A stretch of DNA of 64,000 nt from an uncultured Poribacteria bacterium (GTDB lineage: Bacteria > Poribacteria > WGA-4E > WGA-3G): NCBI GenBank assembly GCA_951813565.1, contig OX638351.1:3552001-3616000 (forward strand), written 5' to 3'. Every line of letters starts with the position of its first letter. The stretch's first letter is position 1. The position numbers and the translations under genes are program-made. This document shows, in pieces, positions 2,674-56,075 of the stretch. A model generated the notes under the pieces. That model did not search any database and was not told where the DNA came from. It worked only from the letters and a program-made list of their open reading frames with translations.

Positions 2674-2991
2674 GTAGGTCGGGTAGAAGCGGTAGCGAAA
2701 CCCGACTTTTTATAGTTCCATGTCGGGTTTCGCAAACTCAACCCGTAGGTGTCAACTTAAGAAAAAAATGCTGGCTTATCTCTTGTGGGAGGGCTTTCTA
2801 AGCCCGATTTTGTGAGACTCAAGCTGTAAAGCGTATTTGGCGTTGATTCACTCCCACAAGAAGAAATTTCCTTAAATTGACACCCGTCAAATCATGCAGA
2901 ATACCAAAAGCGTATTCTGCCAAGCGCATTTGGCGTTGATTCAGGCATTCATAGCATTGATTTATGGGTTTCGCAAGCTCAACCCGACGGA
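2674..2991. repeat. Composite intergenic repeat cluster: GTAG-type REP-like palindromes, a small MITE and hairpin micro-elements
   Basis: gtaggtcgggtagaagcggtagcgaaacccgac at 2674..2706, with inverted partners near 2721 and 2965. Related copies at 23370, 27258 and 30347. Confidence 0.75.
2748..2884. mobile_element. Small MITE with GGTGTCAA(C/T)TTAAG terminal inverted repeats
   Basis: ggtgtcaacttaag (2748..2761) and cttaaattgacacc (2871..2884), 13/14 match, enclosing a REP doublet. Confidence 0.6.
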
Positions 2992-3027
2992 CAATATGTT
3001 ATGACAATTTGTCAATTACAAATGGTA

Positions 3028-4053
3028 TTATCCATTCGCAAAAATAAGCCGTTGCCTGTTTTGACACGGAAGTTCTATCGTTTGCCCAGTGATACCACTC
3101 TCAATTGCGGCAAAGCCAATCTCGTTGACAGCGGTATAGTCATCACGAGAACAATCGGGGGGTTGTCCACCGTCAAGAAAATCGGTAATTTGTTTATATG
3201 CTACTTTAAACGGACTCGCATTTTCAGGCAAATCAAGGGTCGCATTATCAATTAATTTGCCCTCTTTATGCACAGTTGTACCGCTATAAAACCCAGCTTG
3301 AACTGTGCCTTCACTACCGAGAACATCAACTGAAAATCCGCCTCGGACACCGTGTTTTCCGACATGGAAACCCATCACGCCGCTTTCAAATTGGATAGTT
3401 GAACCGACGATTGCAGGTTCCGGTTCGTAAGGTTCTGGCACATCACCACCACCTTCAACATATCCGGTTACCGAAACGGGATCGTATCCAGCGAACTGGC
3501 AAATCATGTCGGTAGTGTGTATAGCGAAAGATAGCACACCGCCGCCGCAATACCCGATCACACTCTGCACCTCTCCGATAAGACCGTCCTTAATCAGCGA
3601 TTGAAGTCTGATGAGATGCGGTCCCCAATGTCGCGTATAGTCAACAACAATCGGTATGCCTTTTGCATCAGCACCCGCAGTCATTGTGTCAACTTCTTCA
3701 AGTGAGCATCCTGCGGGTTTCTCAAGAAAGATGGCTTTGATGTCTGCTTTCAAGACGTTCTGCATCACCTGAAAGTGATGAGGTCCTCGCACACAGACAG
3801 CAACGATGTCTAACTTTTCACTTTCAAGCATCTGAACGTCTGTTTCGTAGTAATTTATAGAATTGTCTGGGAAACCCGGTCCCCACGTGTTCTTAAAGTC
3901 TGCTTGACGCTCAGGGGACATATCTGCAACTGCTATCAATTCAGTTGTCTCACATAAACGGATGCCGCCTGCATGGCAATACGGATTAGCATCATCTGGT
4001 GTTGAATAACGGGCGGCAATACTACCTAACCCGATAATACCGACACGATACAT
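3028..4053 (-). CDS. Gfo/Idh/MocA family oxidoreductase
   Basis: MYRVGIIGLGSIA Rossmann start and FLEKP motif. Start reassigned to ATG 4053 with an AAGGGAG RBS. Confidence 0.9.
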   Translation of the reverse strand: MYRVGIIGLGSIAARYSTPDDANPYCHAGGIRLCETTELIAVADMSPERQADFKNTWGPGFPDNSINYYETDVQMLESEKLDIVAVCVRGPHHFQVMQNVLKADIKAIFLEKPAGCSLEEVDTMTAGADAKGIPIVVDYTRHWGPHLIRLQSLIKDGLIGEVQSVIGYCGGGVLSFAIHTTDMICQFAGYDPVSVTGYVEGGGDVPEPYEPEPAIVGSTIQFESGVMGFHVGKHGVRGGFSVDVLGSEGTVQAGFYSGTTVHKEGKLIDNATLDLPENASPFKVAYKQITDFLDGGQPPDCSRDDYTAVNEIGFAAIESGITGQTIELPCQNRQRLIFANG

Positions 4054-4187
4054 TGGAGTTACTCCCTTTTTTAAAGATTGGTTAGAGGATAACATATATA
4101 GGGTAAATTGGCAAGGGGTTGTAGGGTGAATGTTCCAGAACCATTCAGTCTTCCAATAATTTCTAACTTCTTTCAAAGGTCTCTTCC

Positions 4188-4281
4188 TGTAGGAACGACC
4201 TCCAGGTCGCGACAGATTACGAACGGTCGCGACCTGGAGGTCGCTCCTACAAAGAATTCGGGGTTACAAACCTCTCCTACA
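4188..4281. repeat. REP doublet (REPIN-like) plus a second REP family copy
   Basis: tgtaggaacgacctccaggtcgcgac...gtcgcgacctggaggtcgctcctaca inverted pair, followed by tcggggttacaaacctctcctaca. Confidence 0.75.
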
Positions 4282-4315
4282 TGGGTTGTTCATCAAAATT
4301 GATAATCTAAATGTT

Positions 4316-54474: not shown

Positions 54475-55754
54475 TTTTTTGATGTAGTTAGAAGGGAAAC
54501 CTGCTTTTGACGGGCTTGTTTTGCTTTACTCTCTAACCCGATGTGCGTGTAAACCGTGGCGAGCGTATCCCAATAATTTGCCTCAGTTGGTGCAAGCTCT
54601 GTGGCAGTTTGTGCATGGGATAGTGCTTTATCAAGATTCCCCCGCAATTCAGTATAGCAAACAGCGATATTATTATGTGCAATAGCGAGTGTTGCATCAA
54701 TAAAGATTGCTTTTTGGTAGGCATCAATAGCGAGTTCTATATTTTCCTGTTGGTGATAAGCAAGCCCTAAATTGTAATGCGCAGCGGCTAAAGATGGAGA
54801 TAATGAAATGGCACGTTTATAGTATTCAATTGCTTTATCAGACCGCTTACGCGTCAAATACAAGATACCAAGATTATTATAACCTTTCGGATCGTCTGGA
54901 TGAATTTTGACCCACTTCTGTGCTTTCTGAAGAAGCGGGTCGGTGTGGCGGAGAATTTTGAAGAATGCCATTGTTGACGCTGCTTTTTCCTTCTGCCCAA
55001 GTTTAATATATGTCTGGGCGAGTTGGTAATGTGCCTCTGTGTTATCACTCTGAATTTCAATCACTTTTTGAAATTGAGTTATAGCATCATCGTAACGTGT
55101 CTGCTTGGCATATACCTGCCCTAAACCTAAAATAGCACCAATTCCACTTGGATTAAGACGAACTGCCTTTGCATAAGATTTTTCTGCTTCAGAAAAGAGT
55201 CCTTGTTTCAGGTATGCCTCAGCGAGTCCGTAATGTGCCTCTGCCCATTTTGCGTCAATAGCGATCGCTTGTTTAAACGCATCAACAGCAGGTGGAAAAG
55301 TCCCCTGTTTCAGATAAACCAACCCGATATTATAGTGTGGTTCGGCTTTCTTTGGTGGTAACGCTAACGCTTTCTTATAAGCGTCAAGCGCTGCATTATA
55401 TTGTTTGAGTTCTGAGTACGTTATACCGAGCGCGTTGTAAAAAACGGTAGAATTTGGATTGTGTGCGATGGCCTCTTTATATTCCAATACTGCCTTTTCA
55501 AATTCCTCCAACGCGTAGTAAGCGGATGCTTTTTGATAATGAACTTCAGCGAGCCAGTTAGCTTCCGCATCTGCTTTCGCTGAACGGATTGTTTCATCAA
55601 ACGCTTTAAGTGCCTTGCTATATTGACCTTCTTCTAAATTTTTTATACCACGTTGGTAGTGTTCGCCGGCGCGATCAGCTAAAGCGAAGTTTACTAAAGC
55701 ACTACAAAGAATGAGTATCGTTAAGTATCTGAGGGATAGGCATAAATAATTCAA
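54471..55754 (-). CDS. Secreted tetratricopeptide repeat protein
   Basis: Multiple TPR motifs (AHYNLGLAY, YNNLGILY). Confidence 0.9.
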   Translation of the reverse strand: MNYLCLSLRYLTILILCSALVNFALADRAGEHYQRGIKNLEEGQYSKALKAFDETIRSAKADAEANWLAEVHYQKASAYYALEEFEKAVLEYKEAIAHNPNSTVFYNALGITYSELKQYNAALDAYKKALALPPKKAEPHYNIGLVYLKQGTFPPAVDAFKQAIAIDAKWAEAHYGLAEAYLKQGLFSEAEKSYAKAVRLNPSGIGAILGLGQVYAKQTRYDDAITQFQKVIEIQSDNTEAHYQLAQTYIKLGQKEKAASTMAFFKILRHTDPLLQKAQKWVKIHPDDPKGYNNLGILYLTRKRSDKAIEYYKRAISLSPSLAAAHYNLGLAYHQQENIELAIDAYQKAIFIDATLAIAHNNIAVCYTELRGNLDKALSHAQTATELAPTEANYWDTLATVYTHIGLESKAKQARQKQVSLLTTSKK

Positions 55755-55763
55755 TGTTATAGC

Positions 55764-55890
55764 GGATTCTACAATTAACTGGACATCTGAGCTGTCCGAG
55801 TGATCTCCGATTCCCGACTATTAGTGGTTTCGTCGCGATTCGGAGATCACTCCTACAGAATATATGTGAACTTATTTACATAATTTACTA
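55764..55890. repeat. 127-bp element, inverted copy of 45381..45507
   Basis: Direct sequence comparison. Confidence 0.85.
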
Positions 55891-55891
55891 T

Positions 55892-56075
55892 AATGTGTGT
55901 TTAAAGGTAGTAGACACGCTCCGCATGCCGTAAACAGTTTAAAAGTGGCAACAAATACCAAACGCTTATTTGGCAATAAATTACGCGACTACAATCCGGA
56001 TTTCTACAAATGAGGAAGCACCTAAAGTACGGCACTGTCTGTGTTGCTGCGCCAAATAATTATGCACACACCTCA
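55892..56075. mobile_element. Truncated copy of the GAGGGGTGTGCA MITE family
   Basis: Right end ctgtctgtgttgctgcgccaaataattatgcacacacctca matches 52410..52450; the left TIR is missing. Confidence 0.7.

Follow-up and report, generated by a model that had tools for sequence, protein, structure and literature searches.

REP elements with RAYT (TnpA-REP) transposases were reportedly described by Messing in 2012. The REPs and REPINs of REP–RAYT systems are short intergenic hairpins with covarying stems and a conserved tag at the foot, present in hundreds of copies (Bertels and Rainey 2011, PMC3116915; Quentin 2018, PMC6006769), and Y1 enzymes bind hairpins of 20–25 nt and recognise a short guide located 5' of the foot (Quentin 2018, PMC6006769). 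The GTAG and CGTC super-families are likewise tagged hairpins, and Di Nocera et al. (2013, PMC3733652) report that Anabaena variabilis, Thermomicrobium roseum and Halothiobacillus neapolitanus have REP dimers inserted into longer palindromes, REP-free target palindromes not being found in two of those three species. REP–RAYT repeats persist by vertical descent within restricted lineages, and their presumed mover is a Y1 enzyme that works on single strands. IS200/IS605 ends and PATEs combine a hairpin of about 25 nt with insertion 3' of a short specific sequence and leave no duplication; the right end of the IS608 type is cut 7–9 nt 3' of the hairpin foot. Integron attC sites, with the core GTTRRRY, act as folded single-strand hairpins and form same-orientation arrays. 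Finally, SDR4–6 of the Nostocaceae (21–27 nt), reportedly described by Elhai et al. in 2008, are said to be mobile-looking sequences of tens of bases, nested in repeats and in each other and lacking an enzyme.

Here we analyse a repeat of a Candidatus Poribacteria sponge symbiont that shares traits with each of these systems. The unit, 33–35 nt overall, consists of a 9-bp covarying stem, a loop of about 7 nt and the tail GTTGATT, which on the opposite strand reads as AATCAAC 5' of the hairpin. It is a real micro mobile element of the REP/SDR kind and is among the smallest mobile DNAs seen; the listings and abstract openings returned by full-text literature searches contained no description of GTTGATT repeats in Poribacteria. 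The preliminary description, made from this DNA alone, had proposed a minimal element, and the unit is indeed discrete and non-coding. The genome holds about 450–640 copies, compared with 4–16 in reversed-sequence controls. The genome scan suggested earlier found the hairpin-plus-tail pattern at 456 sites (16 in reversed or complement-only controls), and the 3'-arm-plus-tail pattern occurs at 642 sites (4 in the control), 624 of them outside ORFs, so that by these counts the unit is, like a REP, a short high-copy imperfect palindrome. GTTGATT itself occurs 2358 times genome-wide versus 682 times for its reverse. Within the window, that is, the whole 64,000-nucleotide stretch of DNA analysed, the 3'-arm-plus-tail pattern is matched 8 times, whereas 100 shuffles average 0.26 and none of them reaches 8.

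Both sides change in 6 of the 9 stem pairs, the rows used for this figure having been chosen for possessing stems, and a matching 5' arm (at most 1 mismatch) is present in 297 of the 439 sites selected by 3' arm and tail alone. The covariation claimed earlier therefore holds for these pairs, except that one of its examples, the GCAGAATAC/GTATTCTGC hairpin, is tail-less and appears solely as an inner module, always in one fixed context. Predicted DNA folds of units have energies of −9.6 and −10.5 kcal/mol, with z-scores of −3.4 and −4.9. The unit ends in a single asymmetric tail without target duplication, and two larger repeats that contain it, of about 150 bp and 210–260 bp, are both gene-less. 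Nine places in the window had been listed as carrying the hairpin element. All nine were read: three hold intact units, one a degenerate unit, and the other five units that are composite or truncated. Together with one empty host site, they are as follows.

2829..2850, plus strand: truncated unit with loop end AGC, 3' arm GTATTTGGC and tail GTTGATTCA, adjoining REP head CTCCCACAAG; 5' arm and REP palindrome absent
2885..2962, plus strand: 78-nt composite at ACACC^TATGGGT of a MITE-like repeat
6877..6910, minus strand: intact single 34-nt unit, GCTGGATGC / GCATTTAGC, with 2 stem mismatches and tail GTTGATTTG; its host is a GTAG-type REP, entered between head CTGTAGGC and palindrome GCGCTTTGCAAGCGCGC
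15717..15749, minus strand: degenerate unit of the ACCGAATGC subfamily, stem perfect, tail decayed to GTTGAAA
15988..16022, plus strand: intact 35-nt unit, GCCAAATGC-CAAAAAGC-GCATTTGGC-GTTGATT-CA, no stem mismatch
27309..27410, minus strand: composite in which the 5' arm of a unit (27344–27410) is split by a 28-nt insert (27375–27402)
27420..27443, plus strand: the commonest host site in its empty state, REP GGGGTTGAAAACCC^CTCCTACAAG, the caret position carrying no unit
30504..30537, plus strand: intact unit of the ACCGAATGC subfamily, no stem mismatch
52244..52348, plus strand: nested composite at REP site GAGGC^GCAATGAATTGCGC, outer unit GCAGCATGC...GCATGCTGC-GTTGATTTG
55950..55972, plus strand: shortened unit (11 nt lost) at the same REP site, GTGGC^GCAATAAATTACGC

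The composite at 2885..2962 comprises C and a GTCAAAT.. unit with a tail-less inner hairpin (2896–2920) in its 5' arm/loop; the 3' arm and tail (2926–2943) are followed by the 3' portion of a unit of B' type, whose tail is ATTGATT (2944–2962). The unit at 15988..16022 lies after CCC in CCGCACCC^CGGAGCAGGG, where a repeat of about 200 bp ends, and is the one with the predicted fold of −9.6 kcal/mol (z −3.4). In the composite at 27309..27410 the 28-nt insert is single-copy and flanked by a 5-nt repeat, and positions 27309–27332 form a tail-less GCAGAATAC hairpin module. The unit at 30504..30537 is a fixed part of the 210–260-bp gene-less repeat (about 25 copies; here approximately 30353–30563). 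At 52244..52348 the outer loop has been opened after CACAC and contains a B-type unit (52258–52283, altered tail 52320–52328), which itself holds another unit (52284–52319); the whole is predicted to fold as nested hairpins (−27.1 kcal/mol, z −4.9). The shortened unit at 55950..55972 apparently arose, judging from its letters, by an 11-nt deletion between two direct repeats, ATTTGGC, one in the 3' arm and the other in the tail and its flank. When contigs from four runs of four studies were compared with window positions 1–20000, all stopped at repeat clusters, with ends near 2157–2989, 4054–4304, 6758/6774 and 15477–15994. No contig bridges a unit; one joint in X1 that skips 15782–16110 was set aside, its shorter side measuring only 27 letters.

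Genome-wide, the REP site GGGGTTGAAAACCC^CTCCTACAAG is empty in 56 copies and filled in 81, and in each of seven host repeat families one exact site is found both empty and occupied, the occupants being many different units or arrays. The comparison of exact filled and empty sites revealed no target duplication, in line with the lack of an obvious long one noted for the window. Counts for individual hosts are given below.

REP-C host: 156 empty, 82 filled, 47 distinct inserts
REP-A host: 56 empty, 81 filled, 50 distinct inserts
REP-A2 host: 28 empty, 11 filled, 10 distinct inserts
REP-B host: 272 empty, 30 filled, 27 distinct inserts (the regular expression also caught longer stretches holding other repeats)
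MITE-like site: 66 empty, 19 filled, 17 distinct inserts, with an insert identical to the 78-nt one of the window listed here
GTCCC^GTAGGGAC hairpin host: 21 empty, 29 filled, 19 distinct inserts

The presence of many different units at one exact position implies repeated independent entries. Excision from the hairpin start to two nucleotides beyond the tail restores a 22-mer present elsewhere for 188 of 456 copies. Units insert immediately 3' of a C, most often the last of CCC or CC, on their own strand: position −1 is C in 116 of 125 distinct non-tandem contexts, and CCC precedes the junction in 86. The form of the junction varies by host (hairpin, tail and 2 nt versus C, hairpin and tail), and the end dinucleotides go with the host, being CA/CG at REP-A, TG at REP-C and absent at REP-B and the MITE site. 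The suggested preference for REPs is upheld and extends to other repeats: 96 of the 125 contexts lie in repeated DNA, compared with 1311 of 3000 random non-ORF positions. The related statement that most copies interrupt a palindrome stands only in this broader sense; junctions fall within a perfect hairpin of at least 6 bp in just 29 of 125 contexts, versus 526 of 3000 CCC^ control sites, so that by this strict measure there is no clear enrichment inside perfect hairpins.

Units also accumulate on one another. A related 35-nt B-type unit occupies the loop of the main type, with stacking up to four deep. The loop is opened at one position in 58 of 190 GCATGCTGC units, whose loop lengths of 42, 78, 102 and 126 correspond to successive additions. 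There are, furthermore, 56 head-to-tail arrays of mixed subfamilies, each with 2–9 units. The idea that the element inserts into itself thus applies to members of the wider family, but a complete main-type unit was never found inside another: the peeling test, in which 439 units were removed, revealed none.

These arrangements bear on the simplest alternative, an ordinary REP family of a classical REP–RAYT system whose apparent insertions are BIME-like mosaics of adjacent REPs. The unit is short, intergenic, palindromic and high-copy, with a conserved tag at the hairpin foot, the genome does have RAYTs and GTAG REPs, and REPs within other palindromes are on record (Di Nocera et al. 2013, PMC3733652). 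Nevertheless, its tag AATCAAC matches neither GT[AG]G nor CGTC and represents a third kind, and no RAYT in 30 loci of the genus is flanked by inverted units as in a REPtron. Unlike REPINs, the copies are singletons and head-to-tail arrays rather than inverted doublets of fixed spacing; among 141 neighbours within 300 bp, 112 share a strand (89 of these directly adjoining), and the 29 that lie on opposite strands are scattered in spacing. Unlike known REPs, the unit enters other REPs and its own relatives, nests to four levels and, in contrast to two of the three cases of Di Nocera et al., has host sites that are empty in tens to hundreds of copies. Whole units split hairpins in the loop or the arm, and undamaged, unfilled copies of these hosts exist elsewhere, which indicates insertion and not juxtaposition. 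We therefore consider an ordinary REP family improbable.

The family is restricted to one genus. Strong model hits were obtained in 36 of 36 congeners, and 24 genomes of other genera show 0–1 weak hits. Per-genome counts of model hits level off at about 115 scored candidates and take in weak hits, and were replaced by exact-pattern counts; the latter range from 0 to 439 across 40 species of the genus. In an exact-pattern scan of 185,579 species genomes, Poribacteria MAGs account for 79 of 80 among the matches listed, and viral contigs contain no exact match. Empty orthologous sites, which the preliminary description had proposed looking for, do exist: for one gene pair the spacer is absent in two species and measures 85–442 bp with differing repeat stacks in four others. 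Some species of this single Poribacteria genus have seen a steep increase in copy number.

Could the unit instead be a motif selected by the host, such as a protein-binding site, terminator or RNA stabiliser, and spread by selection? Near-consensus copies do occur in 36 species, density is higher between convergent genes (119 copies per 147 kb) than between divergent ones (101 per 234 kb), and intact copies were sampled in two genomes without Y1 enzymes. However, copy number varies from 0 to 439 among congeners, nesting destroys the hairpins of the units, orthologous spacers differ wholly, an Rfam search of the window found no family and the window has no T-run terminator. As function would also leave the arrival at new exact sites unexplained, this explanation is very unlikely. 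The transcription-direction bias is only mild; with both cumulative GC skew and gene-strand bias flat, no clear replichores emerge.

We favour, at roughly even odds (probability about 0.5), a family of non-coding, REP-like micro mobile elements that move as single-strand hairpins by means of a Y1 (HUH) enzyme acting in trans. A discrete piece repeatedly enters new sites; its moving form would be single-stranded DNA with a folded hairpin. An enzyme of the RAYT/IS200 kind would bind this hairpin and read the bases beside its foot, AATCAAC on the opposite strand possibly taking the place of the GTAG guide of REPs. The enzyme may then cut at the hairpin foot and 7–9 nt beyond, and join the piece into an exposed C-rich single strand. 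Units do stack head to tail and within one another, most sites lie in REPs and other intergenic repeats or in a related unit's loop or linker, and composites have gone on to spread as units in their own right. The proposed cut 7–9 nt 3' of the foot resembles that of IS200/IS605 elements and PATEs, as do the hairpin, the insertion 3' of a short specific sequence and the lack of duplication; on the other hand, the unit has one hairpin, no left and right ends, and a putative left cut at the foot itself. MITEs differ from it in having the terminal inverted repeats of a DDE transposon and target-site duplications, both of which are missing from the unit with its one asymmetric tail. Compared with attC, GTTGATT fits 6 of 7 positions of GTTRRRY, but most units lack a paired inverse core, AAC standing directly 5' of the hairpin in only 11 of 125 contexts, as in double-headed copies, and the unit is shorter than any attC. 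SDR4–6 are similarly tiny repeats inside other repeats and one another with no known enzyme, yet belong to another phylum and have other sequences. For cyanobacterial small dispersed repeats, spread through an RNA copy was reportedly once considered. Reverse transcription into hairpin targets would suit very small, hairpin-seeking units with no linked DNA transposase, but poly-A tails, a 5' truncation series and target duplication are all absent, the transcription bias is slight and no RNA sequencing run contains the window, making this route extremely unlikely.

As for the mover, the window contains no candidate enzyme gene, consistent with the earlier proposal of mobilisation in trans from outside it, of which the HUH identity is the conjectural part. 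The genome has 10 Y1 matches, including two intact RAYT genes (J and H) and one intact IS200-like gene (F). The suggested long copies flanking a Y1/HUH gene were not seen, none of the 10 Y1 genes in the genome and none of the 30 RAYT loci in the genus being bracketed by the unit. RAYT genes are flanked by their own GTAG-type REPs, and the only Y1 gene with a nearby copy is J, that copy being an insert in J's own GTAG REP. Across the genus, 3 of 30 RAYT loci have a unit within 1.5 kb, never on both sides. Copy number has a median of 36.5 (range 19–439) in the 24 genomes where an uninterrupted RAYT match exceeds the cut-off and of 9.5 (0–165) in the remaining 16, kin being non-independent; this association may be an indirect one, since the REPs where units land are themselves made by RAYTs. 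RAYTs over the cut-off are absent from G063 (165 copies) and G014 (63 copies). The type of F was seen in 19 of 36 congeners, and 14 of 24 genomes from genera without the unit have it too. IS200/IS605 TnpA, present in 17 of 39 congeners, does not co-occur with the unit: it is abundant in G009, which has 8 copies of the unit, yet was not found in G006 or G012, which have 323 and 139. The hairpin at the IS200/IS605 ends of this genome, CCCCTACCTTTAGGTAGGGG, is unrelated, and the unit is accordingly not the end of an IS here. A 36-bp palindrome that accompanies a mini-recombinase of this genome likewise bears no relation to the unit.

No Y1 family, then, tracks the unit cleanly. A PF01797 search at E 0.01 gave no match in G023 (one contig, 92% complete), G010 (94%) and G001 (97%), and the unit persists in these three good genomes without detectable Y1, with 24 copies in G023 and 19 in G010. 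At most one stem mismatch was seen in 11 of 15 sampled copies in G023 and 9 of 15 in G010, versus 297 of 439 in this genome. The unit may therefore be mobile with a mover other than Y1, either an unrecognised nuclease or recombinase or host template switching at hairpins and C-rich microhomology. Retention of the unit in such complete or near-complete genomes, with intact copies sampled in two, and the lack of a Y1 family bracketed by or co-distributed with it speak for such a mover. Moreover, the two junction forms and host-linked end dinucleotides resemble copy-and-switch at microhomology, and the direct repeat ATTTGGC in 3' arm and tail offers potential slip sites. The fixed length, the strict orientation to a C-rich target and the conserved hairpin-plus-tail geometry are, by contrast, traits of a site-specific enzyme, and slippage alone cannot bring different subfamilies to unrelated sites. 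Nor is there a candidate: IS110, invoked earlier as a system that targets REPs, has no PF01548 (DEDD transposase) match in this genome, control genomes being positive; the best integron integrase match (TIGR02249) reaches 33 bits against a cut-off of 265; and a Y2/IS91 search gave no matches here, its control search being equally without matches. Overall, we regard a non-Y1 mover as rather unlikely. Since genomes lacking Y1 hold copies, sampled as intact in two, and no known transposase family is linked to them, a bolder reading would make the GTTGATT units hyperparasites of selfish repeats using a mechanism new to bacteria, through an unrecognised enzyme of the genus or hairpin-guided copying by host replication or repair; we consider it unlikely.

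At 33–35 bases the unit lies near the lower size limit of mobile DNA, and the filled and empty states of one site can be counted by the dozen within a single genome. In practice, short-read assemblies break exactly at clusters of the unit and other repeats. Given the range of 0–439 copies across the genus and many closed genomes, the mover should be findable by association and testable with short oligonucleotides. The unit thus offers a clean system for the minimal sequence needed by a transposition machine, for the parasitism of REP-type repeats and for the turnover of intergenic DNA in sponge symbionts.

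Each of the repeats studied here is a hairpin in which two complementary arms pair over 9 bp around a loop of ~7 nt (C-A/G-N-A-N-G-C); the fixed tail GTTGATT comes next, with TG or CA mostly after it. Inspection of the sequence confirmed hairpin units at all the places named in the preliminary description, three of them intact, one with a decayed tail and five truncated or composite:

6877-6910, - strand: intact unit
15717-15749, - strand: unit with decayed tail
15988-16022, + strand: intact unit
30504-30537, + strand: intact unit
2829-2850, 2885-2962, 27309-27410, 52244-52348 and 55950-55972: truncated or composite units

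The pattern of 3′ arm plus tail occurs eight times in the window, against a mean of 0.26 in 100 shuffles, none of which reached eight. Folding of the intact units as single-stranded DNA gives about -10 kcal/mol (z -3.4 to -4.9). Other repeats lie close to the units. A 28-nt insert (27375-27402), for which no second occurrence was found in the genome, splits the 5′ arm of one unit, with GCATT (+ strand) as a direct repeat of 5 nt on either side. A gene-less repeat of 210-260 bp (30353-30563) has ~25 copies in the genome, always with a ACCGAATGC unit near one end; no Rfam family matched within the window, this repeat included. A ~200-bp repeat (15788-15986), common to many genomes of the genus, runs up to the very start of the unit at 15988 and holds GCACTCC..GGAGTGC hairpins resembling those that flank F, an IS200-like gene of the same genome.

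The window belongs to a single 5.43-Mb contig (G+C 43%). GTTGATT occurs 2358 times in this genome, compared to 682 times for the reversed letters, and is preceded by a perfect hairpin in 289 cases. Allowing at most one mismatch in the 9-bp stem yields 456 copies, versus 16 in controls (reversed or complement-only sequence), and the 3′ arm plus tail is found at 642 sites, versus 4 in the control. ORFs of at least 150 aa cover 81% of the genome, and 624 of these 642 sites lie outside them. Among the copies, the conserved sequence comprises the 25-nt hairpin and the tail, with little beyond. The stems fall into several subfamilies, namely, GCAGCATGC, GCCAAATGC/GACAAATGC, GCTGAATGC, GCTGAATAC, GATGAATGC and ACCGAATGC, consistent with the earlier claim of stem covariation. 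When 24 diverse units were aligned, both partners varied in six of the nine stem pairs; the paired percentage itself means little here, as the rows were picked for having stems. A less biased count comes from 439 sites selected by the 3′ arm and tail alone, so that the 5′ arm played no part: here the 5′ arm is perfect in 200 and has one mismatch in 97 (297 of 439 together), whereas 128 sites have at least three mismatches, many of them being interrupted or truncated units.

For 188 of the 456 copies, excision of the segment from the hairpin start to two nucleotides past the tail recreates a 22-mer that the genome also contains at another place. Host repeat families provide stronger evidence of entry in one piece, since the same exact position is either empty or filled, and by many different inserts.

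Host repeat families in the genome (^, insertion point): empty copies; filled copies; distinct inserts
GAGGC^GCAATGAATTGCGC: 156; 82; 47
TTGAAAACCC^CTCC(C/T)ACAA: 56; 81; 50
TTTTCAACCCC^GAT: 28; 11; 10
CGCTCC^(C/T)ACA(G/A): 272; 30 (a regex count that includes longer stretches with other repeats, true single units there being 33 nt); 27
ACACC^TATGGGT: 66; 19; 17
GTCCC^GTAGGGAC: 21; 29; 19
GGGGTCCC^GGTGCCCCGCC: 0; 38; 28

Inserts at one given host site range from single units through arrays of as many as six to nested composites. Comparison of filled and empty copies of the host families revealed no target duplication, and empty sites are abundant in the genome, in agreement with the duplication-free insertion originally suggested. 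The base preceding the unit is C in 116 of 125 distinct non-tandem contexts; 92 contexts have CC at this place and 86 have CCC. Two forms of junction can be distinguished: hairpin, tail and two further nucleotides (CA or CG at the host family REP-A, TG at REP-C), and C followed by hairpin and tail (the CGCTCC REP and the ACACC^TATGGGT repeat). We take these forms to reflect variable cut positions, ~33-34 nt apart; the same two forms would also arise from copying that switches at microhomology. Cleavage would take place at the hairpin foot and 7-9 nt past it, which, like the insertion beside a short sequence and the lack of duplication, fits single-strand transposition.

Entry into REP palindromes, as initially proposed, holds with regard to repeats but not clearly with regard to perfect hairpins. 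The flanking 12-mer is repeated at least five times in 96 of 125 contexts, compared to 1311 of 3000 random non-ORF positions, indicating that repeats are preferred in a genome with already repeat-rich intergenic DNA. By contrast, only 29 of 125 junctions fall within a perfect hairpin of at least 6 bp, versus 526 of 3000 CCC^ controls. Moreover, the position of the unit in the REP differs by family, being either between the head and the palindrome or inside the far arm. The sites are better explained by the C-rich sequence than by REP geometry.

Insertion of the element into itself was likewise only partly borne out. After removal of all 439 complete units of the main type, no other main-type unit came to light around any of them. 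However, a related B-type unit of 35 nt with the same tail, GGGGAATGCC-ATAA-GGCATTC-(GG/AT)ACC-GTTGATTTG, occurs 133 times in the genome (0 in the control) and occupies the loop of main-type units. Out of 190 arms with GCATGCTGC and tail, 112 are part of intact units and 20 lack a 5′ arm inside 260 nt. In the other 58, whose 5′ arm is found at a greater distance upstream, the loop is opened at the same position each time, CA(C/T)AC^GC. The opened loops measure 42, 78, 102 and 126 nt, lengths that correspond to successive additions. Identical inner stacks recur in outer units of differing loop variants and also in GCATTTGGC units. The composite at 52244-52348 represents the 78-nt stage and is predicted to fold into nested hairpins. 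The GCAGAATAC hairpin, previously listed among the stems of the unit, turned out to be a tail-less inner module confined to one fixed context (112 matches in the genome, both strands counted). Units also abut head to tail, forming 40 pairs, 9 triplets and longer arrays (4, 5, 6 and 9 units), frequently with several subfamilies in one array. Of 141 neighbours, only 29 are inverted, and these show no preferred spacing.

The family is centred on one genus. A covariance model gave strong matches (E ~1e-17) in all 36 genomes of the genus, and in 24 genomes from other genera of the order a single weak match in 8 and none in 16. In an exact-pattern scan of one genome per species (185,579 species), 79 of the 80 matches listed are Candidatus Poribacteria and one is an ‘uncultured bacterium’; the pattern was not found in viral contigs. 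Within the genus, species carry from 0 to 439 exact-pattern copies (controls, 0-1), the maximum being in the genome studied here, followed by congeners G006 (323), G002 (277), G063 (165), G061 (153), G034 (143) and G012 (139); the counts in several closed genomes are 8-56. The spacer between the convergent genes at 2627/3028 holds ~380 bp of stacked repeats, units included, in the genome studied here, a different stack with B-type units in G017 and only GTAG REPs in G036, and is absent altogether in G012 and G014. Similarly, the spacer between the genes at 6564/6951 is almost nil in G014, carries two units in a different REP in G002 and has no units in G012, G017 and G036. Such empty or differently stacked orthologous spacers imply that the units arrived after those species split. 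In the window, paralogous genes with a SASA (sialate O-acetylesterase-type) domain also follow one another in tandem (12388-17723); their spacers are 100-126 bp in relatives versus 570 bp of repeats here.

The genome has ten matches to Y1, the single-tyrosine HUH transposase (PF01797), and the genes and elements concerned are as follows:

IS200/IS605 tnpA-tnpB elements: four full copies
further tnpA copy, E: one
tnpB-only copies of the same IS200/IS605 element: ~25
IS200-like genes: F intact, its relative G broken
RAYT-type (REP-associated Y1) genes: J and H intact, I broken

A 750-bp IS200/IS605 fragment is present in the window (39174-39926). The ends of this element bear an unrelated hairpin (left CCCCTGCCTTTAGGTAGGGG, right CCCCTACCTTTAGGTAGTGGG), ruling out the unit as an end of the resident IS200/IS605. 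An earlier suggested link to IS110 was discarded for this genome, as it has no IS110 match. Integron integrase gave only one weak match (33 bits, 4771414-4771599); in each of 14 control genomes, the same model responded weakly to ordinary tyrosine recombinases, of which the genome studied here may have very few.

Each of the genes J, H, I and F has its own repeats on its flanks, of GTAG type at J and I, and the sole unit near J is inserted into the REP of J. Directly downstream of J lies a tandem array of ~8 copies of its own REP (period ~41-43 bp; G000:C1:242500-242830). About 2 kb ahead of the window, inverted GTAG REPs (CTGTAGGAGCGACCTCCCGGTCGCGAC) lie on both sides of a RAYT-type gene that a single TAG interrupts (G000:C1:3549542-3550111). 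A second RAYT class, which scores much higher (~200 bits to NF047646), is found in seven congeners (G033, G029, G061, G032, G018, G012 and G006; loci L074-L080) and not in the genome studied here. None of 30 RAYT loci from the genus is bracketed by units. Of 36 congeners, 19 have F-type genes, as do 14 of 24 genomes of genera lacking the element. IS200/IS605 TnpA occurs in 17 of 39 congeners, without the copy number of units following it. No Y1 match at all was obtained in G023, G010 and G001, and yet G023 and G010 have 24 and 19 units, mostly in one composite context. The sampled units there are as intact as in the genome studied here (at most one stem mismatch in 11 of 15 and 9 of 15, respectively, versus 297 of 439). 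On the other hand, the median copy number is 36.5 (minimum 19) in the 24 genomes where an uninterrupted RAYT match exceeds the family cut-off, compared to 9.5 in the remaining 16, with G063 (165) and G014 (63) as exceptions; this lends weak support to RAYT as the mover, given the kinship among the genomes, the fragmentation of some assemblies and the fact that the landing-site REPs are made by RAYTs.

Among the described elements nearest to the GTTGATT units are REPs/REPINs and the small dispersed repeats of cyanobacteria. A literature search at the level of titles and abstracts found no published description of GTTGATT repeats in Poribacteria. Also close are tagged REPs inside other palindromes, as found by Di Nocera et al. 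2013 (PMC3733652). The unit shares its anatomy with Y1 substrates, which, according to Quentin 2018 (PMC6006769), comprise a ~25-nt hairpin and a short conserved sequence at its foot; on the opposite strand of the unit, AATCAAC takes the place of the GTAG of REPs. Mobilisation in trans by an HUH enzyme, in line with the preliminary description, agrees with anatomy and insertion mode; the unbracketed RAYT loci and the genomes without a Y1 match speak against it. Since no gene could be tied to the unit family, we give about even odds to the statement as a whole, namely, a family of mobile units moved by a trans-acting Y1 enzyme. Based on the Y1-like anatomy and the fit to single-strand transposition, such an enzyme would be the most likely mover of the units.
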